Shown here: piece after piece, positions 1,034 to 11,377 of the stretch
Numbering within the stretch: the first letter of the stretch is position 1
How the letters are laid out: the number at the start of each line of letters is the position of its first letter
From: Rathayibacter soli
GTDB taxonomy: Bacteria > Actinomycetota > Actinomycetes > Actinomycetales > Microbacteriaceae
Length of the DNA stretch: 24,000 bases
Direction: 5' to 3'
Assembly: GCF_030866825.1 (NCBI RefSeq)
Contig: NZ_CP133020.1
Coordinates: 4,164,924-4,188,923 of the forward strand
Position numbers and translations under genes: made by a program
Notes under the pieces: model-generated
Seen by the model: the letters and a program-made list of their open reading frames with translations, nothing else
Told to the model about the DNA's origin: nothing
The model's database searches: none

Positions 1034-1618
1034 ATGCACAAGCTGAGCACCCGCCTGCTCTTGACGCTCGCCGCGATCGGCGTCGCGGGCGGCATCGTGT
1101 GCCTGCCGACAATCTACGCCGGCACCGCGCTACTCGCGGTCGCCCCTCCGCTGTATGGCCTGATCGTCGGGGCATACGTCTTTCCCGGCGTGATCGCTCA
1201 ATCATTGTTGCGGCGTGGCGGCGTTGCCTTCGCGACAGCGACGTTGGCCGGCCTCGTTGCTGCCCCGTTCTTTCCAGGCGGTGTCGCCTACATTCCGGCG
1301 TTTGCGCTCGTCGGAGCGTTGCAGGAGGTGCCGTTCGCGGTCAGCGCGTACCGGTACTGGCGTGGCTGGGTTTTCTACCTGACAGCGGTTGTCGTCGGGC
1401 TGAGTATCGCCGTCGCCGAGTTCATCGCCGTCGCCGGCGAACGTGCGCCGCTGTGGGTCCAGATCGTCAAGCCCGGTGTGTTCGTTGTCAGCCTGGTGGT
1501 CTTCACAGTGCTCGGCCGCGCCGTCGCGGCCGGGCTGAATCGGGCGGGCGTCGGCCGCGGCCTCGCGCTTCCCATTGATCGGCGCCGCGTCGCCCGGGTG
1601 CAGAATCCAGTTCCGTGA
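1034..1618 (+). CDS. ECF transporter S (substrate-capture) component, YkoE-like (COG4721 thiamine/HMP-precursor type)
   Basis: 194-aa all-hydrophobic protein. The pattern (..YGLIVGAYVFPGVIAQSLLRRGGVAF.., ..GALQEVPFAVSAYRYWRGW.., ..VLGRAVAAGLNRAGV..) parallels B. subtilis YkoE as I remember it. It sits directly upstream of a fused double ATPase and an EcfT gene, which is the ykoEDC order. The only in-frame start after the upstream stop at 971-973 is ATG 1034 (plus a CTG at 974). Confidence 0.75.
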   Translation: MHKLSTRLLLTLAAIGVAGGIVCLPTIYAGTALLAVAPPLYGLIVGAYVFPGVIAQSLLRRGGVAFATATLAGLVAAPFFPGGVAYIPAFALVGALQEVPFAVSAYRYWRGWVFYLTAVVVGLSIAVAEFIAVAGERAPLWVQIVKPGVFVVSLVVFTVLGRAVAAGLNRAGVGRGLALPIDRRRVARVQNPVP

Positions 1619-3444
1619 CTGCGGCGAGCAACACGACGAGCAACGCGGCGAGCAACACAAGACCCGACGCGACGCCCGCTGCCGCGCCTGACGCGCGGGT
1701 CGAAACGCCGCCGGTGCTCACAATCGACGGCGTGCGCATCCGCCACGCCGAACAGGATCGCTGCACTCCCGACAACATCACGTTCACGGTGCGCCCGGGC
1801 GAGGTCGTGCTCCTGCTCGGCCCGAGCGGCTGCGGCAAGTCCACTCTCACGCTGGCGATGAACGGGCTCATCCCGCACGCGATCGCCGCCACCCTCGACG
1901 GCACCGTCACCGTCGGCGGCGTGAGCACCGCCGACACCTCGCCCGCTCGGCTGAGCGAGAACGTCGCCATGGTCTTCCAAGATCCGGATGCCCAGATCGT
2001 CACCGGCAGCGTGCTCGACGAGGTTTGCTTCGGGCCGGAGAATCTGCGACTGCCGGTCGAGGTTGTGCGAGGGCGCGCCGAGACGGCCCTGCGCCAGGTG
2101 GGTTTGTGGGAGCGCCGCGCCGAGAGCCCAGACCGGCTCTCAGGCGGCGGCAGACAGCGACTTGCGATCGCCTGCGCGCTGGCACTGGATGCCCCCCTGC
2201 TGGTTCTCGACGAACCGACTGCGAACCTGGACCCCGCCGGAATCGATGAAGTGTATGCCGTGCTGCGCTCACTCGTCGAAGGCCCATCGAACCGTGCGAT
2301 CGTGCTGGTCGAGCACAACCTCGACGCCGCAATCGACCTGGTCGACAGAGTCGTCGTGCTCGACGCCGCGGGCCGGCTCGCCTTCGACGGACCGGTCGGT
2401 CCGACGCTGCGCAACAACGCGGATGCGCTCCTGCAGCTCGGCGTCTGGCTGCCCGTCGCGACTCTGGCCGCGCTTCGGCTGCGTGCCGCAGGCCTGCAGC
2501 TGGACCCGCTGCCGCTGACTCCCGCCGAGTTGCGCGCAGCCCTGGACTCAGTGCCCGCAGACGCGGTGCCCGCAGACGCGGTGCCCGCAGACGCGGTGCC
2601 CGAGCGCGGCCGAAGGCAGCTCCAGCAAGACCGCGAGGATGCCGCGCTCATCCAGGTGCGCGAACTCACGGTGCACACAGGGAAAGTGCCGGTTCTGCAC
2701 GAGGTGAGTCTGGACATCCACCGCGGTGATTTTCTCGCCGTGATCGGCATTAACGGCGCTGGCAAGACGACCCTGGTGCAGGCGATTGCCGGGGTCGTAC
2801 CGTCACCGCGCGCAGCAGTCCGGCTCGGGCAGCTCGACGTCGGCCGGGCCGGCGCGCGTGAGCGAGCGGCGCACGTGGGCTTCGTGTTCCAGAACCCGGA
2901 ACATCAGTTCCTGGCCTACACCGTGTTCGATGAGCTGGCGCACGGTTTGCGCATCCGCAAAGTCGCCGCCGCCGAGATCGACGCGCGGGTCAGCGCGATG
3001 CTGGAACGGTTCGGGCTCGCAGACGTGCGCGACCGGCATCCGTTCCTGCTGTCGGGCGGGCAGAAGCGACGCCTGTCTGTCGGGTCCGCACTCATTGACG
3101 GCGCGGACGTTCTGGTGCTGGATGAGCCGACGTTCGGGCAAGATCGCGCACGCGCAGGAGAGCTATTGGCAATTCTCGATGACCTGAACGCAGCCGGCAC
3201 CACGGTGATCATCGTCACGCACGATCTGCAGTTGGTCGCCGAGCATGCCAGCCATGTCGCGGTGCTGTCTGGCGGCCGGTTGTTGGCGCACGTACGAACC
3301 GAGGCGGCGTTCGCGGATGCCGCACTGATCGACCGCGCCGGGCTGCGGCTGCCACCGCTCGCGCAGGCGATGCGCGGGCTGCGCAAGCATCCGGAACTGC
3401 AGGGCGTCGTGCGGTTGAGCGACCTGCCCGGGCCGTCGCTATGA
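1615..3444 (+). CDS. ECF transporter fused double ATPase (EcfA-EcfA', YkoD-like ABC ATP-binding protein)
   Basis: Two complete ABC cassettes. Walker A: GPSGCGKST and GINGAGKTT. Signature: LSGGGRQRL and LSGGQKRRL. Walker B: LLVLDEPTANLD and VLVLDEPTFGQD. H-loops: VEHNL and VTHDL. GTG start at 1615 overlaps the upstream TGA (GTGA). Confidence 0.92.
   Translation: MTAASNTTSNAASNTRPDATPAAAPDARVETPPVLTIDGVRIRHAEQDRCTPDNITFTVRPGEVVLLLGPSGCGKSTLTLAMNGLIPHAIAATLDGTVTVGGVSTADTSPARLSENVAMVFQDPDAQIVTGSVLDEVCFGPENLRLPVEVVRGRAETALRQVGLWERRAESPDRLSGGGRQRLAIACALALDAPLLVLDEPTANLDPAGIDEVYAVLRSLVEGPSNRAIVLVEHNLDAAIDLVDRVVVLDAAGRLAFDGPVGPTLRNNADALLQLGVWLPVATLAALRLRAAGLQLDPLPLTPAELRAALDSVPADAVPADAVPADAVPERGRRQLQQDREDAALIQVRELTVHTGKVPVLHEVSLDIHRGDFLAVIGINGAGKTTLVQAIAGVVPSPRAAVRLGQLDVGRAGARERAAHVGFVFQNPEHQFLAYTVFDELAHGLRIRKVAAAEIDARVSAMLERFGLADVRDRHPFLLSGGQKRRLSVGSALIDGADVLVLDEPTFGQDRARAGELLAILDDLNAAGTTVIIVTHDLQLVAEHASHVAVLSGGRLLAHVRTEAAFADAALIDRAGLRLPPLAQAMRGLRKHPELQGVVRLSDLPGPSL
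2551..2602 (+). repeat. In-frame 15-nt tandem repeat (gtgcccgcagacgcg x3 plus a partial copy) encoding VPADA VPADA VPADA VPE in the inter-cassette linker
   Basis: Three identical copies at 2551-2565, 2566-2580 and 2581-2595, then gtgcccg at 2596-2602. Confidence 0.9.
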
Positions 3445-4292
3445 GCACGGGCGAGAGCGCGGGTTTGGGTGCGGGCACCGGCAGGGGAACGGTGACCGAC
3501 CCGTATCAGGCACGATCGGATGCTACGCCCCGGCGGTTCTTGTACGGCCTGAATCCGCTGGCCACGCTCGCCGCAGTGCTGCCGGTCATCGTGGCTGCAC
3601 TGTTCACCCGCAACGTCGCCACGCCGTTCGCGCTCACGGTGCTTGGAGTGGTCATCCTGCTCGTCGGAGTGCGTCTGAGCCTGAAAGCGCTGATCCTGCT
3701 ACTGGTCGCACTGCCGGCGTTCGTCTGCGTTCTGACGGTGAGTTTCGGGGTCTGGACCGATCCGGCCATGGTTGCCGACACTCCTGTGGTGGTGCGACTT
3801 GGTGGATTCCAGCTGTACGCGGGCGCTCTCGAGGTGGGCTTGGCCACGGCTCTGCGCCTGGCCGTGCTGATCGTGCTCGCGTTGGCCTGCTCGCTGGCGA
3901 CGCAGGGGGCGGACTTCGTGCGGTCGGCAGTCCGTTACCTGCGCGTTCCATACCGAATCGGCTACACGGTGCTCGCGGCCTACCGTTTCGTGCCCCGGTT
4001 CGGCCGCGAACTGGAGGTGATCCGGCAGGCGCACCGCGTGCGCGGCTCGGCGGGCGGGCGTGGGCCGATCGGCGCCATCCGACGCGGATTCGGCTCGGTG
4101 GTTCCGCTGCTGGCCGCCGCGATTCGGCATGCCGAACGGGTCGCCCTGGCGATGGATGCGCGCGCGTTCGGTGCATACCCCACTCGCACGGAGCGTCATG
4201 AGGTGCCGCTGCGCCTGTGCGACGGTGTCGCCATTGCCGTTTTCTGGCTGGTGGCTGCGGGGATCTTCGTGCTGACGGCGGACCTGCGGTAG
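3441..4292 (+). CDS. ECF transporter transmembrane T component (EcfT/CbiQ family, YkoC-like)
   Basis: 283-aa polytopic membrane protein. The C-terminal half carries the Arg-rich cytoplasmic helices typical of EcfT (..AYRFVPRFGRELEVIRQAHRVRG.., ..AAAIRHAERVALAMDARAFG..). ATG at 3441 overlaps the ATPase stop (ATGA). Confidence 0.85.
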   Translation: MSTGESAGLGAGTGRGTVTDPYQARSDATPRRFLYGLNPLATLAAVLPVIVAALFTRNVATPFALTVLGVVILLVGVRLSLKALILLLVALPAFVCVLTVSFGVWTDPAMVADTPVVVRLGGFQLYAGALEVGLATALRLAVLIVLALACSLATQGADFVRSAVRYLRVPYRIGYTVLAAYRFVPRFGRELEVIRQAHRVRGSAGGRGPIGAIRRGFGSVVPLLAAAIRHAERVALAMDARAFGAYPTRTERHEVPLRLCDGVAIAVFWLVAAGIFVLTADLR

Positions 4293-4343: not shown

Positions 4344-5186
4344 ATGACACTCGTGTCTTCCACAAATGGCGAGGCCCGAGCCGCCGAGTCTGGTGCGACA
4401 GGCTTCAAACTGGCTGTGCTCGCGGCGGACCGATCCCTCGGCATTGCGTGGGCAGATCCCGGCGCCTGGCGAGCGGATGCCCCAGCATTGGCTCTCTTGA
4501 GCCAGCGCGAGCGCACACGCTACGCCGCGTTCACTCGACCGGAAGCCGCACACAGCTTTGCGCTCGGCAGAGCACTCATCAGGGAACTCGTCGCCTATGT
4601 GTCGGCGGTGCCCGCCGACGCAGTGAGGGTCGACGCGATGTGCCCGACTTGCGGCGGGCCGCACGGGAAGCCGATCATCGCGGCTCCCATTGCTGCGCGC
4701 GGGCGCATCCACGTGAGCGTGTCACGATGCGTGGGCGTCGTCGTTGCCGCCGCGACCACGGCAGGGCCGATCGGGGTCGACGTCGAGCCTGCAGACACCG
4801 GCAAGGACCGCATTTCCGGCGTCCGGTCGATCGCACCCGCCCCGCCCGGCATCGACGCAGAATCCGCTGAGGCAACGCTGCGCCGGTGGACGGCGATCGA
4901 GGCCGTGCTGAAAGCCGACGGGCGCGGGCTGACACTCGATCCATCAAACGTCACCTTTTACCGCACGGCGAGCGCGGCTGACCCGGCAATCGCGGCTGAC
5001 GCGACCGGTGGTGCGGTAACGGCGCAGATCGGTGACGAGCGCGCTCGCTACGCGGTGACGCATCCGCAGATCGACTGGGCGTTCGTGGTTGGGATCGCCG
5101 TGGCTCAGCGCGGCGGCGGGAGCGCCGGAAGCGCGTGGTCGACCAGCCACCGGTCGAAGAAGTCGTCCAGTGGTGCGTCGGAGTAG
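4344..5186 (+). CDS. Sfp-type 4'-phosphopantetheinyl transferase
   Basis: Motifs GGPHGKPII, IGVDVEP and WTAIEAVLKADG (the W-x-x-K-E-A-x-x-K-like PPTase motif). The first ~20 codons have low GC3, so the true start may lie downstream of 4344. The stop at 5184-5186 is fixed. The C-terminal ~25 aa look like non-conserved read-through into the convergent gene. Confidence 0.75.
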   Translation: MTLVSSTNGEARAAESGATGFKLAVLAADRSLGIAWADPGAWRADAPALALLSQRERTRYAAFTRPEAAHSFALGRALIRELVAYVSAVPADAVRVDAMCPTCGGPHGKPIIAAPIAARGRIHVSVSRCVGVVVAAATTAGPIGVDVEPADTGKDRISGVRSIAPAPPGIDAESAEATLRRWTAIEAVLKADGRGLTLDPSNVTFYRTASAADPAIAADATGGAVTAQIGDERARYAVTHPQIDWAFVVGIAVAQRGGGSAGSAWSTSHRSKKSSSGASE

Positions 5187-6436
5187 CGGGACGCGAGCGC
5201 CCGAAAATCGGCGGTCGTGACGCATCCGTAGCGAAACGCATCCGTCCAGTCGTGCAGCAGCCGGAAGAACGCGTCGTCGCCGATTCGCAGCCGCAGCGCG
5301 TGCAGTGTCAAGGCGCCGCGTTTGTAGACGCGATCGTCGAACATGGCGCCGGGCCCCGGGTCGGCGATCGAGAGGTTCGCACGCAGTTCGGCGAGCTGCG
5401 CGTGGTGAAGACGGGCGCAGGCATCCGCACTGGACGAGCCGGAGCGCTCCGACCACAACCATTCCGCGTAGCAGGCGAATCCCTCGTTGAGCCAGATGTG
5501 CCGCCAGGCGGCGATGCCGACGCTGTTTCCGAACCACTGGTGAGCGAGTTCGTGCGCGATCAACCGGTCGGATCCGCCGTTACCGTCGGCGTGGTTCGCA
5601 CCGAAGACCGCCATGCCCTGTGCTTCCAGCGGGATCTCCAGGTCGTCGGCTGTCACGACCACGCCGTAGCCGTCGAACGGGTACGGACCGAACGATTCCT
5701 GGAACAGGGCCATCATGCGGTCGAGGTGTCTGAAGTCACGGTGCACCCGGTGCTCGATCGCCAGCGGGTACGCGAACAACCCGCGTACTCCGTTCAGGTC
5801 GGGGTGCGCCCGCTTGTATTGGCCGATCTGCACGGTCGCCAAATAGGTCGCAGTCGGCTGCGCCTGCTCGTACACCCAGACGCCCTTGCCGTGCGCGACC
5901 CGGTGGTCTCGGAGCCTGCCATTGCAGATCACCGTGTACTGCTGCTCCGTCGAAACGCGGATGCGGTAGGTCGCCTTCGACGCCGGGTGGTCGTTGCACG
6001 GGAACCAGGTGGACGCCCCGGACGGCTGGGCGGCGACGATCACGCCGTCTGTCAGTTCCTCCCAGCCGACGGCGCCCCACGGGCTGCGCCGGGGAGCGGG
6101 CGCCCCGCCGTAGCTGACGATGACGGTGAACACCGACCCCGCCGCGACAACCGACGCCGGCGTGACAACCAGCTTGTAGCCGGGATGCGAGATCTTGGCA
6201 GCGGGAACGCCGTTGACGCTCACCTTGACCGCTCGCAGCTTTGCCAAGTCGAAACTGAACCGATGCAACGGCTCGGTTGCGACCGCCTGAATCTTCGCCG
6301 TGGCATCCAGCCGGTTTCTGACCACGCGATAGTCGAGGTCGAGGTCGTACGACGCGACAATGTATCCGCCATTGCCGAGGCCGGGCAGGTAGGTATCCCC
6401 CGCACTGTTGGCACCCGCTTGGACCGTGCTCATCAC
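5105..6436 (-). CDS. M1-family zinc metallopeptidase (aminopeptidase N / LTA4H-like fold)
   Basis: HELAH (nt 5540-5554) followed 18 residues later by the Glu of WLNEGFACYAE, giving HEXXH-X18-E. The N-terminal beta-domain resembles M1 family members. Start is GTG 6436 or the adjacent in-frame ATG 6433. No Shine-Dalgarno; the start lies inside the 17-nt repeat array. Confidence 0.9.
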   Translation of the reverse strand: MMSTVQAGANSAGDTYLPGLGNGGYIVASYDLDLDYRVVRNRLDATAKIQAVATEPLHRFSFDLAKLRAVKVSVNGVPAAKISHPGYKLVVTPASVVAAGSVFTVIVSYGGAPAPRRSPWGAVGWEELTDGVIVAAQPSGASTWFPCNDHPASKATYRIRVSTEQQYTVICNGRLRDHRVAHGKGVWVYEQAQPTATYLATVQIGQYKRAHPDLNGVRGLFAYPLAIEHRVHRDFRHLDRMMALFQESFGPYPFDGYGVVVTADDLEIPLEAQGMAVFGANHADGNGGSDRLIAHELAHQWFGNSVGIAAWRHIWLNEGFACYAEWLWSERSGSSSADACARLHHAQLAELRANLSIADPGPGAMFDDRVYKRGALTLHALRLRIGDDAFFRLLHDWTDAFRYGCVTTADFRALASRYSDAPLDDFFDRWLVDHALPALPPPR

Positions 6437-6517
6437 TGGACCGTGCTCATCATTGGACTGTGCTCATCACTGGACCGTGCTCATCACTGGACCGTGCTCA
6501 TCGTTTGCTGCTCATCA
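6421..6517 (-). repeat. 17-nt tandem repeat array (unit ATGAGCACGGTCCAGTG on the minus strand) filling the whole Pls-like/peptidase intergenic space
   Basis: Plus-strand units ggaccgtgctcatcact at 6421-6437, 6438-6454 (1 mismatch), 6455-6471 (1 mismatch), 6472-6488 and 6489-6505 (diverged 3' end), then a degenerate copy up to 6517. Each unit duplicates the peptidase start region. Confidence 0.92.
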
Positions 6518-9500
6518 CTTGGTCGACGTGTGATAGTCGGCGGTCGTCACTTCACGCCACGGCCCGATGGGGTTGCCGCTCCAGCGACTGAACGCTGGCA
6601 CATATTCGCCGCGCAACACGAGCGACGCCGGCCCGACGCTCGCGTGGCTGCCGATCCGCGCAGCGGGCAGGATGACGCTGTGCGGGCCGATCGTCGACCC
6701 GGTATCGAAAGTGACTGTGTCGATGCTCATGATTCGATCATGGAACAGATGTGTCTGCACCACACAACCGCGATTCACGGTCGACGCGTCGCCGAGCCGC
6801 ACGAGGTCTGCTTCCGGCAGCCAATAGCTGTCGCACCAGACCCCACTCCCGATCGAGGCGCCGAGGCTGCGCAGCCACCAGACCAGCGCGGGAGTGCCAG
6901 CGGCCGCCTGCGCGAACCAGGGAGCCGCGACCATTTCGACGAACGTGTCTGCAACCTCACTGCGCCACACGAACGATGACCAGAGCGGATGCTCACCCGC
7001 CCGGATGCGCCCCACCAGCAGCCACTTCGCCACCGTCGAGAAGGCGGCGGCCACGGCTCCGGCCGCGAGCATGACGACGCCACTGAGCAGCACAGCCAGC
7101 CAGACATCGAACGCCGCTGTGATGGCGGCAAGCATGAGCAGCACCCCGAGCCCGACCGCGCAGGTCACAACAACGGGCACGAACCGGCACAGCTCCCACA
7201 GTGTACGGGCGATGCGCAACGAGGCGCGCGGGGCGAAAGTACGACTCTGATCCCCGACCGCCGCGGTTCTGCGCAGACGCACGGCCGGCGATCCGAGCCA
7301 CGACGAGCCGGCTTTCGACTTGCGCGGGGCGGAAGACAGCACAGCAACCAGCCCGTCGCGCGGCACCGTGTGCCCGGGCCCGGCCATCCCGGAGTTGCCG
7401 AGGAACGCTCGGGCGCCGATCTCGGCACGGGCGACCCGCAGCCGGCCACCGCCGAGCTCGTAGGAGGCAACCAGGGTGTCGTCGGCCAGGAACGCACCGT
7501 CTTTCACCGTCGTCATCACGGGCAGCAGCAGCACCGTCGACGCCTCGACGTCCCGCCCCACCTTCGCCCCGAGCATCCGCAACCAGACCGGCGTGGCCAG
7601 GCTCGAATAGATGGGGAAAAGCATGGTGCGCGCCAGATCAAGCAGTCTCTCACTCGCCCAGACCTGCCAGCCGATCCGAGAGCGCACCGGATACGTTCCC
7701 TCGCGGATGCCGATCCCCAGCACCCGCACGAACAACACAACGAGCAACGCCAGCACAATGCCAGCCACGATCGTCGCGGGCACCAGCATCGCGAACGCGC
7801 GCAGGGCGGCAACGCCGAGGCTCGGCGCGTCGCGCAGCACAGGCGCTGCCACGACAACCCCCGCCGCAAGCGCGATGAACGGCAGCAGTGAAACGATCAG
7901 CGAAGCCCCACCGAACGCAAAGACCCAACGCGTGGCCTGCCGCGGCCGCTCGGACGGCCACCACAGATCGGCCGAACCGACCCGAGCGGCCGGCGAACCG
8001 GCCCACCGCTGCCCGGCCGGCACACGGCCGAACACAGACGACCCCGGAGCAACCACCGCGTTCTTGCCGATCCGCGCACCGGGCAGCAGCGTGCTGCGGG
8101 CCCCGATCGAGGAGTTTCCGCCGATGCGGATCGCGCCGATGCGCAGCAGGTCACCGTCGATCCAGTAGCCGGAAAGGTCGACCTCCGGCTCGATCGAAGC
8201 CCCGGCGCCGATGCGCAGCATCCCCGTGACCGGCGGGATCGCGTGCAGGTCGACGTTGGGAGCTATGGTCGCGCCGAGCGCGCGCGCATAGTACGAAATC
8301 CATGGCGCTCCGGCGAGACTGACCGCACCGAGCTGATGCGCGATCTGCTCGGCCAGCCACAGCCGCAGATGTACGCCGCCGCCGCGCGGATAGTCGCCGG
8401 CGCGCACCCCGGCAAGCAGGGTGCGGGCGCACACGACGGAGATTGCCATCCGCCCGAACGGCGTCACGAAGATCAGCAGTGCGATCACGAGCCCCCACAC
8501 ATTGACGTGCGGCAGAAAGCCGAAGCCGCCGAAACCGGAAAGGATCTGGCTTGCCGTCAACAGATACAGCAGCCAGCGCACCCCGCTCAGAATGAACAGT
8601 GGGACGCCGAGAATCGTCTGCAGCCACTGCATCCGCCGCGGCGTCCGCGAAACGACGTGTTCGGATGTCCGCACCACCGGCCCATCGTCGGCCCGCGCTT
8701 TCAACTCGGTCGCCATCGCACCGAGCCTGGGGTGTGCGTAAATATCGGCAACCGTGAATTCCGGATCGTTCTCGCGGATGCGGGTGACCAGCTGAGCCGC
8801 AGCGAGGGAGCCGCCGCCGAGGTCGAAGAAGTTCGCGTCAGCATCCGTCACCGGAATTCCGAGCACGGAGCGCCACTGCTCGGCGAGCTGCCGCAGGCCC
8901 TCGTCCATGCTGTCGGATTCGGCGGGGTCCTGCAGCAACGGCCAGGGTAGCGCGTCGCGATCGACCTTGCCCGAGGTGCGCGTCGGCAGTTCATCCATCA
9001 CCGCGAGCAGCGGCACGATCGCCGCAGGGAGTTCCGCGCGTAGCCGGGTGAGGCTGGCCGCACGATCAAATGCGCCTGGGTCGGCGACCGACAGGTAACC
9101 GACGAGCACCTTGTTGCCCGCCTCGGTCGTTCGTACTGCGGCCGCGGCGGCCGTTACTCCCGGCAGCGCCTGCAGTGCCGCTTCGATTTCACCCAGCTCG
9201 ATGCGTCGTCCACCGACCTTGACCTGATCGTCTGCCCTGCCTTGAAAGATCAGCCCAGTGGGCTCAAAACGCACGAGGTCACCGCTGCGATAGGCGCGCG
9301 GCCAGCCGAGCGCGGCATCCGCAGCGTACTTCTCGGCATCCTTCACCGGGTCGAGGTACCGGGCCAGGCCGACACCGCCGATGACGAGCTCACCGACCTC
9401 GCCGTCTGCAACGGGTTGCCCGTTCGCGGCGAGAACTGCGAGATCCCAGCCGTCCAAGGGCAGGCCGATCGGCACGGGTTCGCCGGGATGCAGCAGCGCC

Positions 9501-10540
9501 GCGCACGCCACGACAGTCGCTTCGGTCGGTCCGTAGGTGTTCCACACCTCACGCCCCTCGACCGCCAGGCGATCCACCAGTTCGCGCGGGCACGCTTCGC
9601 CGCCGAAGATGAGCAGTCGAACGTTCTCAAGGGACTCAACCGGCCACAGCGCCGCGAGTGTCGGCACCGTCGAGACGATCGTTATGCCGTGCGTGGTCAA
9701 CCAAGGCCCCAGATCCGTTCCGCTGCGCACCAGCGAGCGCGGCGCGGGAACCAGGCAGGCGCCGTTGCGCCAGGCCAGCCACATCTCCTCGCAGGATGCG
9801 TCGAATGCTACGGACAGTCCGGCGAGCACCCGGTCGCCGGGCCCGATCTTCTCCCGTTGCACGAACAGTCGCGCTTCTGCATCGACGAATGCGGCGGCCG
9901 AACGGTGCGTCACGGCGACGCCCTTCGGAGTGCCCGTCGACCCCGAGGTGAAGATGATCCACGCGTCATGGTCAGGCGAGGGCGGCGTCACGATCACGTT
10001 CGCATGCGTGCTGGCGTGTGGCGGGGTGCCAGCAAAGAGCGAGCGGTCGCCAGGCGGATGGTCATGTCCCGCTACCGACCGGCCGGCCTCGCCGAACGGC
10101 TGGGTCCGCTCGCCTGCCGGCCTGGTTTCGTCGAGCGCAAGTCGCGATGACGGCTCGAAGACGCCGTTAGCTACGATCACTCCGCTCACCGTAGCCTCGC
10201 CGAAGACGAGTTCGGCGCGCTCGACGGGATCGTCGGCATCCACCGGAACATAGGCGGCGCCCGCCGCCAGAATCGCCAAGATCGCCACGTACAGTTCTCG
10301 TGAGCCGGACGGCATCCGCACGCCGACGCGATCACCGGGTTGCACGCCGGCCTCATGCAGCCGCGCGCTCACACGCACGACGCGCGCCATCAGTTCCCGA
10401 TAGCTCAGGGCGCCTGCGGCATCTTCGAGTGCCGATGCCTCAGGGAACCTCTGCGTCGTGTCTCGCAGAATGTCCAGCAGTGTTCGCTCCGGCGCGGCAA
10501 AGCTGCTGCGGAGCAGGGTTCCGGGCGGAGAGTCGTTCAC
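6515..10540 (-). CDS. Pls/PosA-family single-module membrane NRPS (epsilon-poly-L-lysine synthetase-like homopoly(amino acid) synthetase): A-T-2TM-C1-2TM-C2-2TM-C3
   Basis: GTG start at 10540 with GGGAG 7 nt upstream. Full set of adenylation cores (IIFTSGSTGTPKGV, FDAS, NTYGPTE, GELVIGGVGLARYL, YRSGDLV, GRADDQVKVGGRRIELGEIE, SGKVDRDAL). Carrier motif FFDLGGGSLAA. Then three hexapeptide-repeat soluble segments separated by three pairs of hydrophobic helices. No HHxxxDG condensation motif and no thioesterase domain. Confidence 0.9.
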   Translation of the reverse strand: MNDSPPGTLLRSSFAAPERTLLDILRDTTQRFPEASALEDAAGALSYRELMARVVRVSARLHEAGVQPGDRVGVRMPSGSRELYVAILAILAAGAAYVPVDADDPVERAELVFGEATVSGVIVANGVFEPSSRLALDETRPAGERTQPFGEAGRSVAGHDHPPGDRSLFAGTPPHASTHANVIVTPPSPDHDAWIIFTSGSTGTPKGVAVTHRSAAAFVDAEARLFVQREKIGPGDRVLAGLSVAFDASCEEMWLAWRNGACLVPAPRSLVRSGTDLGPWLTTHGITIVSTVPTLAALWPVESLENVRLLIFGGEACPRELVDRLAVEGREVWNTYGPTEATVVACAALLHPGEPVPIGLPLDGWDLAVLAANGQPVADGEVGELVIGGVGLARYLDPVKDAEKYAADAALGWPRAYRSGDLVRFEPTGLIFQGRADDQVKVGGRRIELGEIEAALQALPGVTAAAAAVRTTEAGNKVLVGYLSVADPGAFDRAASLTRLRAELPAAIVPLLAVMDELPTRTSGKVDRDALPWPLLQDPAESDSMDEGLRQLAEQWRSVLGIPVTDADANFFDLGGGSLAAAQLVTRIRENDPEFTVADIYAHPRLGAMATELKARADDGPVVRTSEHVVSRTPRRMQWLQTILGVPLFILSGVRWLLYLLTASQILSGFGGFGFLPHVNVWGLVIALLIFVTPFGRMAISVVCARTLLAGVRAGDYPRGGGVHLRLWLAEQIAHQLGAVSLAGAPWISYYARALGATIAPNVDLHAIPPVTGMLRIGAGASIEPEVDLSGYWIDGDLLRIGAIRIGGNSSIGARSTLLPGARIGKNAVVAPGSSVFGRVPAGQRWAGSPAARVGSADLWWPSERPRQATRWVFAFGGASLIVSLLPFIALAAGVVVAAPVLRDAPSLGVAALRAFAMLVPATIVAGIVLALLVVLFVRVLGIGIREGTYPVRSRIGWQVWASERLLDLARTMLFPIYSSLATPVWLRMLGAKVGRDVEASTVLLLPVMTTVKDGAFLADDTLVASYELGGGRLRVARAEIGARAFLGNSGMAGPGHTVPRDGLVAVLSSAPRKSKAGSSWLGSPAVRLRRTAAVGDQSRTFAPRASLRIARTLWELCRFVPVVVTCAVGLGVLLMLAAITAAFDVWLAVLLSGVVMLAAGAVAAAFSTVAKWLLVGRIRAGEHPLWSSFVWRSEVADTFVEMVAAPWFAQAAAGTPALVWWLRSLGASIGSGVWCDSYWLPEADLVRLGDASTVNRGCVVQTHLFHDRIMSIDTVTFDTGSTIGPHSVILPAARIGSHASVGPASLVLRGEYVPAFSRWSGNPIGPWREVTTADYHTSTK
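8807..8809 (-). other. Codon of predicted phosphopantetheine attachment serine (Ser578) of the Pls-like carrier domain
   Basis: The minus strand reads aac ttc ttc gac ctc ggc ggc ggc tcc ctc gct = NFFDLGGGSLA. The tcc codon is the reverse complement of gga at 8807-8809. Confidence 0.8.
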
Positions 10541-10623: not shown

Positions 10624-11190
10624 TCACGAGTTCTTCAGCAGCGCGATCAGGCCTGCCTTGTTCAGTCGCGAGTAGTTCTCCAGCCCTTTCGCGTGGGCTT
10701 GGCCGCGCAGCATCGCGACGGTGGAACGCTCCAACATCGTCAGTGGGGCGTGGGCAGGCGCCTCTGCCGGGGCTGCCGCCTCAGCAGGCGCTGGGATGCT
10801 CGGCGTTGCGGTGCCCGACGACACTGCGGGCTTGACCGGCGTGGCTTTCTCGGCAGACACGGCAGTCTTGGAAGACGCGGCCTTCTTGGCCGAAGCTGCC
10901 TTCTTGGCCGGAGCTGCCGACTTGGCCGCCTTGGCAGACTTCGCAGCGCTCGGCTTCTTCGCAGGCTCGCTCTTCTTCGACTTGGCCCCCTTCGAGGCCT
11001 TGTCGTTCTTGGCAGGCGCGGTCCCCTTGGCCCGTTTCAGCGACAGTTCCAGGTCCTTCGCCTTTGCCTTCGCTTTGGCGCGGGTTTTCTTCTCCAGCTT
11101 CTTCGCTCGGAGCAACGCTTCATCGACCGCATCCTTGGCGTCCGAGTATGCCTTCTTCGCGGCCTTTTCGAGCTTCTTCGCTTTCGGCAC
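10624..11190 (-). CDS. Lys/Ala-rich basic protein with C-terminal Rho_N (Rho termination factor N-terminal / SAP-like) domain
   Basis: AKKA/AKSA-rich, histone-H1-like low-complexity body. The C-terminal end LERSTVAMLRGQAHAKGLENYSRLNKAGLIALLKNS matches the Rho_N helix-hairpin pattern. High GC3 from the GTG at 11190 (VPKAKKLEKAAKK...), with GAAGGGGTGG upstream. The ORF-track TTG start at 11301 adds 37 codons of low GC3, so I prefer 11190. The start remains uncertain. Confidence 0.7.
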   Translation of the reverse strand: MPKAKKLEKAAKKAYSDAKDAVDEALLRAKKLEKKTRAKAKAKAKDLELSLKRAKGTAPAKNDKASKGAKSKKSEPAKKPSAAKSAKAAKSAAPAKKAASAKKAASSKTAVSAEKATPVKPAVSSGTATPSIPAPAEAAAPAEAPAHAPLTMLERSTVAMLRGQAHAKGLENYSRLNKAGLIALLKNS

Positions 11191-11377
11191 GTGCGGTACC
11201 ACCCCTTCACTGCGAACTACGTCGATTGTGGGCAATTCTCCCACTCTGTGGCCAAATCTTCGGCGCGCGCGCTCAAGCCCCAGCGAATGGCCCGGCAGCA
11301 ACTCACCACGCCCTCCCTCTTCACGGCGCCGAGTGCAAATCCGTCAAGTGCGCTTGTGGCCGGGCGTCGCGCGGCCC

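Follow-up and report, generated by a model that had tools for sequence, protein, structure and literature searches.

A Pls-type synthetase gene of Rathayibacter soli with a lysine pocket, a neighboring M1 peptidase gene and a phosphopantetheinyl transferase gene

We analyzed a 24,000-nt stretch of DNA from Rathayibacter soli (Microbacteriaceae; contig NZ_CP133020.1; the whole stretch is referred to below as the window; G+C = 60-70%), which carries a pls gene on its minus strand. We conclude that this gene is most likely the R. soli orthologue of Pls, the synthetase of epsilon-poly-L-lysine (hereafter epsilon-PL), and that a PldII-like M1 peptidase and a dedicated 4'-phosphopantetheinyl transferase (PPTase) make up a small module together with it. 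The pls open reading frame (ORF), which an initial annotation of this DNA had placed at 6515-10540 on the minus strand, was indeed present there; it starts with GTG and encodes 1341 amino acids (aa). The protein is 100% identical to an R. soli protein that NCBI names "Pls/PosA family non-ribosomal peptide synthetase". The reading frame is intact, and all catalytic motifs, the phosphopantetheine-attachment site (Ser578) and the substrate pocket are preserved in it. Coordinates of all features are collected in Table 1.

Substrate pocket and domain architecture of the synthetase

The substrate was examined through the adenylation (A) domain at the N-terminus of the protein. The core motifs A1 (aa 45-54), A2 (95-105), A3 (195-208), FDAS (246-249), NTYGPTE (334-340), A6 (383-396), A7 (417-423), A8 (434-453) and A10 (523-531) were all found, as was a carrier motif at aa 571-584 with Ser578 encoded at nt 8807-8809; each lies at the residues and nucleotides at which it had first been read. 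A PDB search returned as by far the best match 7WEW (E 1e-184), the A domain of Streptomyces albulus Pls crystallized with Lys-AMP, and the two A domains were 65% identical over 486 aligned positions. The ten Stachelhaus positions, located by motif anchors and then checked on the pairwise alignment with 7WEW, read DAESIGTVVK in R. soli Pls, and the residues at the same positions of 7WEW are identical. The code DAESIGTV-K that had been read by hand was thus correct. The exact ten-residue code occurred in 118 of 121 aligned sequences, a set made up of R. soli Pls, 119 close homologues and a Streptomyces Pls. In the entries of Data Set S3 of Jiang 2021 (PMC8117764), the NRPSpredictor2 code of S. 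albulus Pls (BAG68864.1) is likewise DAESIGTVVK, with "lys" as its nearest code, and the same ten residues are given there for fungal and other confirmed epsilon-PL synthetases. Six experimentally confirmed epsilon-PL synthetases share the R. soli code.

According to a 2024 review of A-domain structures (PMC11253843), lysine in the Pls A domain is held at its backbone groups by D213 and K495 and at its epsilon-amine by E217, S256 and T301. Alignment with 7WEW showed that all five Lys-AMP contacts are conserved in R. soli, as D247, K525, E251, S290 and T335. Patel and Gulick argue that the residue at code position 2 sets substrate length, Ala going with Lys, Met with Orn and Phe with diaminopropionate (Dap) or diaminobutyrate (Dab) (PMC10522769); this residue is Ala in R. 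soli. A lysine pocket identical or near-identical to that of confirmed Pls enzymes, which marks Pls in the strict sense, is therefore present. The Pls-identical code and the five conserved contacts support the earlier prediction of a basic substrate, most likely L-Lys, and the computed code gave no sign of specificity for a non-basic amino acid.

We next turned to the domain content of the protein. Pfam matched AMP-binding at aa 26-394 (233 bits), PP-binding at 551-611 (50 bits) and Hexapep at 804-836, and TIGR01733 also matched the adenylation region. The NCBIfam model of the Pls/PosA C-terminal domain, TIGR02353, covered aa 640-1325 over profile positions 2-695 of 695 and scored 709 bits, compared with a curated cutoff of 423 bits. 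No condensation or thioesterase domain was found in Pls above the Pfam curated cutoffs, and no HHxxxDG motif was found in its sequence, just as the initial annotation had claimed; the reading as a canonical non-ribosomal peptide synthetase (NRPS) module was weighed and rejected. A single N-terminal A-T (adenylation-carrier) didomain without condensation or thioesterase domain and a full-length TIGR02353 match above its cutoff both characterize the Pls/PosA family, and both were found here. With 691 representatives of 50%-identity clusters matching the C-terminal domain at E<=1e-30, the family is a large one.

The C-terminal half of the protein was also expected to alternate between membrane and soluble parts. 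Kyte-Doolittle hydropathy revealed three pairs of hydrophobic segments, six in all. Long helices, again six in three pairs, appeared at the positions listed in Table 1 in an AlphaFold2 model of aa 621-1341 that drew on 39 homologues (pTM 0.82, mean pLDDT 76.9). Behind each helix pair the model places one short strand and two helices, and then several short strands in succession, as is typical of a left-handed beta-helix (LbH); unit 1 (C1) is its least confident part. The 2+2+2 arrangement of transmembrane (TM) helices, as judged by hydropathy and the AlphaFold2 helices, therefore agrees with what had been anticipated from the hydrophobic stretches, and the six TM helices in three pairs with three similar LbH units are those of the Pls/PosA family. 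The three units, each a helix pair plus a soluble segment, were mutually homologous by hhalign (probabilities 98.5, 98.6 and 94.9%; E-values 1e-15 to 5e-8), and Foldseek against the PDB returned exclusively hexapeptide-repeat (LbH) acyltransferases and gamma-carbonic anhydrases, with modest E-values near 1e-3. The three LbH-like segments proposed at the outset are thus borne out, and the domains expected from Pfam and NCBIfam all appeared. The PDB fold search gave no solved structure of the whole C-terminal domain, the PDB sequence search gave no match for aa >624, and our literature searches on the structure of the polymerization domain returned nothing beyond a 2023 AlphaFold model. In the published AlphaFold and RoseTTAFold models of PosA, three packed beta-helices sit on top of six bent helices (PMC10522769), and our model of the R. 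soli C-terminal domain agrees with this picture.

Conservation differed sharply along the protein. The LbH units share 78-84% of their positions with homologues, C3 being the most conserved (84%), as opposed to 36% in loops, and this contrast indicates purifying selection on the encoded sequence. The region between motifs A2 and A3 behaved in the opposite way to the rest of the A domain: 36% of its positions were shared with homologues vs. 82% in the remaining A domain. This region is 89 aa long in R. soli and 43 aa in Streptomyces Pls, and it measures mostly 58-90 aa across the Microbacteriaceae; a conserved tail, LFxGxPxHPST, closes the otherwise variable stretch. A Pro/Gly/His-rich insertion had been noted here beforehand, and its presence was confirmed, but the size given, about 25 aa, was too small, as the extra sequence amounts to about 46 aa. 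By its alignment the insertion is a lineage-variable loop.

Full-length comparison with a characterized type of synthetase was made through a proxy, the pls locus of Streptomyces sp. MspMP-M5 (L001), whose protein is 92% identical to 7WEW in the A domain. R. soli Pls and the L001 protein were colinear over residues 5-1325 with 50.7% identity; taken by region, the A domains were 66% identical and the polymerization domains 48%. The C-terminal segments C1, C2 and C3 aligned in order with those of Streptomyces Pls at 41, 50 and 56% identity, as the initial annotation would have it. The Pls of Corynebacterium variabile DSM 44702 is 51% identical to S. albulus Pls and makes epsilon-PL of 26-35 residues when expressed in S. 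coelicolor (Jiang 2021, PMC8117764). Because R. soli Pls has diverged from Streptomyces Pls to the same extent as the C. variabile enzyme (50.7 and 51% identity, respectively), this comparison supports the epsilon-PL reading. Going by the published description of the C. variabile locus, its Pls is likewise a coryneform actinobacterial Pls and has both the code and the pls-peptidase operon in common with R. soli; it differs in coming from another host family.

The reference enzyme, Pls of S. albulus NBRC 14147 (BAG68864.1; 7WEW), shares with R. soli Pls the A-T didomain followed by six TM helices that alternate in pairs with three LbH units, the code DAESIGTVVK, the Lys-AMP contacts and an M1 peptidase gene (pldII) directly downstream. 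The A domains are 65% identical, and overall identity is about 51% as measured on the 92%-identical proxy. R. soli differs from S. albulus in the A2-A3 loop, which is 46 aa longer, in the adjacent PPTase gene, in a peptidase without Tat (twin-arginine) signal peptide, and in a 17-nt repeat array that replaces the stop/start coupling junction. PosA of Acinetobacter baumannii, which makes delta-poly-L-ornithine (PMC10522769), shares its three-part architecture and its NCBIfam family with R. soli Pls. Its code, DMEHNGTVSK, has Met where R. soli has Ala at the length-determining position 2, and its product is a 7-12-mer of ornithine (PMC10522769).

The closest non-identical homologues of R. soli Pls (76%) came from Diaminobutyricibacter and Leifsonia, and no other Rathayibacter species was among the best 120 matches. 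Either pls is missing from the other sequenced Rathayibacter, or R. soli is nearer to Leifsonia than its name suggests.

Peptidase gene, its junction with pls, and PPTase gene

Directly downstream of pls on the same strand lies the intact ORF of an M1 zinc metallopeptidase with the motif HELAH-x18-E at aa 294. Its product shares 40% identity with the protein encoded immediately behind pls in Streptomyces L001, and an orthologue stood immediately downstream on the same strand in 64 of 80 Actinomycetota pls loci. The pls-pldII arrangement is known from S. albulus and was noted for C. variabile (PMC8117764). An operon with a PldII-type peptidase is the other mark of Pls in the strict sense, and it is found in R. 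soli.

The R. soli peptidase shares with PldII, the epsilon-PL-degrading enzyme encoded beside pls in S. albulus, its gene position and the M1 fold with HExxH-x18-E, and it differs in having no signal peptide and no direct stop/start coupling to pls. Neither a hydrophobic nor a twin-arginine N-terminus was detected in the R. soli peptidase by hydropathy and an RR-motif scan, the only two methods applied, and the N-terminus cannot be lengthened, as stop codons close the frame ahead of it. The S. albulus-type orthologues in three Streptomyces loci (L001, L002 and L004) have Tat signals of the RRALLRGAAL type; among the remaining actinobacterial orthologues, most lack such a signal, as the R. soli peptidase does. 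The R. soli enzyme thus lacks the export signal that defines an exported PldII, which suggests that in the R. soli clade the peptidase is cytoplasmic rather than extracellular.

The pls stop and the peptidase ATG are 82 nt apart, and a 17-nt tandem repeat fills this spacer. Each unit consists of the first five peptidase codons plus TGA, so that every copy is a mini-ORF reading MSTVQ*. In order, the pls TGATG is followed by MSSKR*, by MSTVQ* four times over and by the true start MSTVQAGANS..., and every mini-ORF stop overlaps the next ATG. In Leifsonia poae, Agromyces and Pseudoclavibacter, pls and the peptidase gene overlap stop-to-start as ATGA or TGATG. From its sequence, the R. soli array looks like a slippage amplification of such a coupling junction; it might either damp translation of the peptidase or be neutral. 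Metagenomes scanned for exact matches to two 17-nt repeat units gave no hit.

The PPTase gene lies beyond the peptidase gene and converges with it, the 3' ends of the two overlapping by 82 nt. The adjacent PPTase named by the initial annotation proved real by Pfam and NCBIfam, and its place beside pls is conserved in further Microbacteriaceae: a PPTase homologue converges on the peptidase gene in Leifsonia poae, Agromyces and Pseudoclavibacter (3/3 other Microbacteriaceae examined). None was found beside pls in 80 other actinobacterial pls loci. The PPTase ORF of R. soli is intact; the C-terminal tail of its product is low-complexity and rich in Ser, Gly and Lys.

Directly upstream of pls is a gene for a Lys/Ala-rich protein, starting at GTG 11190 or 11202, with the longest ORF reaching 11301. 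The protein has an AKKxxLEKA N-terminus and a long KA/PA-rich middle, and no Pfam or NCBIfam family matched it. Similar Lys/Ala-rich proteins are encoded directly upstream of pls in Leifsonia poae (L081 7283-7909) and Agromyces (L082 7414-7914). The protein is a possible, uncertain member of the pls system.

Mode of action and alternative explanations

A mode of action can be proposed for the module. The PPTase would attach a phosphopantetheine arm to Ser578. The A domain would bind L-lysine, with D247 and K525 holding the alpha-amino and carboxyl groups and E251, S290 and T335 holding the epsilon-amino group; the conservation of these residues was observed, and the roles assigned to them are those of their counterparts in 7WEW. 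The A domain would then make Lys-AMP and load lysine as a carrier-bound thioester. Three helical hairpins would anchor the three homologous LbH units, probably pseudo-trimeric, at the cytoplasmic face, and the epsilon-amine of free lysine, or else of the untethered oligomer as it grows, would attack the thioester with the assistance of the C-terminal domain. Attack by free lysine or an oligomer is the mechanism that Yamanaka et al. in 2008 reportedly put forward for Pls and that PMC10522769 summarizes. Repeated attack would give an isopeptide-linked polycation that leaves the cell. The co-transcribed M1 peptidase would hydrolyze the polymer, serving self-protection or length control; as it lacks a signal peptide, its predicted site of action is the cytoplasm. 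Architecture, homology, substrate pocket and gene context of the module are shown by the data above, whereas the polymer product, its epsilon linkage, its chain length, its export and the expression of R. soli pls are what we infer.

Several points weigh against the identification of the gene as an epsilon-PL synthetase. The polymerization domain is no more than 48% identical to that of Streptomyces Pls, and linkage and chain length are properties that sequence does not reveal. The peptidase is without the Tat signal of PldII, so that its role may differ; the A2-A3 insertion may have an effect as well. The one coryneform homologue put to the test, that of C. variabile, stayed silent in C. glutamicum as well as in its native host (PMC8117764). 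The literature searched yielded no characterized enzyme or product from the Microbacteriaceae.

A synthetase of the same family could make another cationic homopolymer, be it delta-poly-ornithine, poly-Dab, poly-Dap, epsilon-poly-beta-lysine or an arginine polymer. Dab is a tempting monomer, as Rathayibacter-type cell walls contain diaminobutyrate; the family has diversified in substrate and several of its pockets are uncharacterized (PMC10522769), and PosA activates Lys weakly too, so that pocket codes are not absolute (PMC10522769). We nevertheless consider this very unlikely in view of the pocket. Code position 2 is Ala, as for Lys, and not the Met of Orn or the Phe of Dap and Dab, and the whole code is that of Pls, not DMEHNGTVSK (PosA) or DGESISVVNK (beta-Lys). 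Specificity for Orn, Dab, Dap or beta-Lys was weighed and rejected: the PosA code differs from that of R. soli at positions 2, 4, 5 and 9; for poly-Dap or poly-Dab synthetases, Phe is missing at position 2 and the window contains neither transaminase nor aspartate kinase genes, or any other Dab/Dap supply genes; for an epsilon-poly-beta-lysine synthetase, the window contains no lysine 2,3-aminomutase gene. The peptidase partner is also of the Pls type, a context that Jiang et al. described as specific to pls, unlike that of Dab/Dap synthetases (PMC8117764).

If the product is a lysine polymer, it need not be a secreted antibiotic. The genes could be a vertically inherited, near-housekeeping module of the Microbacteriaceae whose polymer or oligomers act in the cell or on the envelope, an idea that we rate as unlikely; the polymer could, for example, be a polycation that buffers nucleic acids, polyphosphate or surface charge and is recycled by the cytoplasmic peptidase. 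A role of this kind would fit the close homologues (69-78% identity) seen in about 20 named Microbacteriaceae genera among the matches listed, the strong conservation of the catalytic parts, the absence of a signal peptide from the peptidase in R. soli and in most actinobacterial orthologues, the PPTase and the Lys/Ala-rich Rho_N-like protein that flank the pair in several genera, and the native C. variabile, in which no secreted epsilon-PL was detected (PMC8117764). But every characterized member of the family secretes its polymer (PMC8117764), broad conservation also fits a useful secreted antimicrobial, and the signal peptide was judged absent by hydropathy and the RR-motif scan only. In a fuller version, which we regard as speculative and unlikely, the Microbacteriaceae would have a four-gene module of Rho_N-like protein, pls, cytoplasmic peptidase and PPTase, polylysine would be physiological inside the cell or at the envelope, and the 17-nt array of R. 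soli, with five coupled mini-ORFs, would tune the amount of peptidase per synthetase. That the locus is a silent or decaying remnant without product is highly improbable. The C. variabile homologue was not expressed in laboratory conditions (PMC8117764), and the repeat array disrupts the normal translational coupling to the peptidase; yet the 1341-aa ORF is intact with all catalytic motifs, Ser578 and the substrate pocket, conservation is domain-specific, as expected under selection, and the peptidase and PPTase ORFs are intact as well.

To basic biology the R. soli gene contributes little. The novelty implied by the initial annotation did not hold up, as NCBI already names the family and coryneform Pls homologues were published in 2021 (PMC8117764), one of which, that of C. 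variabile, had already been shown to make epsilon-PL (PMC8117764). According to Jiang 2021, Pls homologues occur chiefly in coryneform actinobacteria, among them Microbacterium, Arthrobacter and Brevibacterium, with the same pocket and the same peptidase operon (PMC8117764); in the homologue entries of that source, the identity of a Microbacterium protein to C. variabile Pls is printed as 74885, presumably 74.885%. The family, its architecture, the lysine pocket, the peptidase partner and the coryneform spread have thus all been published. Annotation pipelines (NCBI PGAP and antiSMASH) flag such genes, antiSMASH labeling the loci NAPAA, and Microbacterium genome papers report epsilon-poly-L-lysine clusters. 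Epsilon-PL serves commercially as a food preservative, and producers outside Streptomyces are of applied interest. Two questions are raised by these data: why the pls-peptidase pair is so widely conserved in the Microbacteriaceae and yet apparently silent in culture, and what job a PldII-like peptidase without signal peptide performs.

Features of the window

Table 1. Features of the pls locus in the R. soli window
Feature	Coordinates	Strand	Support
Sfp/HetI-type 4'-phosphopantetheinyl transferase, convergent with peptidase	4344..5186	+	Pfam ACPS 28 bits, NCBIfam HetI 33 bits
M1 zinc metallopeptidase, PldII counterpart, no signal peptide	5105..6433	-	Pfam Peptidase_M1 and M1_N
17-nt tandem repeat x4.9 filling the pls-peptidase spacer	6420..6502	-	TRF score 152, 93% matches
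pls, single-module A-T-(TM/LbH)x3 homopolymer synthetase, 1341 aa	6515..10540	-	ORF, database identity, TIGR02353 709 bits
Adenylation domain, aa 20-535, code DAESIGTVVK	8936..10483	-	Pfam AMP-binding, TIGR01733, 65% identity to 7WEW
Variable A2-A3 loop, aa 106-194	9959..10225	-	alignment of 121 homologues
Carrier (T) domain, aa 551-611	8708..8890	-	Pfam PP-binding 50 bits, GGGSL motif
C-terminal polymerization domain, aa 640-1325, TIGR02353	6566..8623	-	full-profile match, 709 bits
TM helix pair 1, aa 635-668 and 681-708	8417..8638	-	hydropathy, AlphaFold2
Soluble LbH unit C1, aa 709-868	7937..8416	-	Pfam Hexapep 804-836, hhalign, Foldseek
TM helix pair 2, aa 871-902 and 908-941	7718..7930	-	hydropathy, AlphaFold2
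Soluble LbH unit C2, aa 944-1112	7205..7711	-	hhalign, AlphaFold2
TM helix pair 3, aa 1120-1143 and 1146-1175	7016..7183	-	hydropathy, AlphaFold2
Soluble LbH unit C3, aa 1177-1341	6518..7012	-	hhalign, AlphaFold2
Lys/Ala-rich protein with C-terminal Rho_N-like helix pair, directly upstream of pls	10624..11202	-	translation

No Rfam family was found in the window, hence no lysine riboswitch, and a scan for promoter and terminator consensus sequences around the operon gave nothing above chance. The remaining neighborhood, which includes genes for an ECF-type transporter, an alpha/beta hydrolase, a luciferase-like monooxygenase, a TetR regulator and LacZ, is not conserved. The ECF-type transporter operon (1034-4292, plus strand) encodes an ABC_cobalt-like membrane component, a fused double ATPase and a CbiQ T-component; it ends 52 nt before the PPTase gene and is not conserved beside pls in relatives. 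Within the gene for the fused ECF/ABC ATPase (1615-3444), a perfect in-frame 15-nt tandem repeat of 3.5 copies (2551-2602, plus strand) encodes VPADA and lies in the linker between the two ATPase domains.

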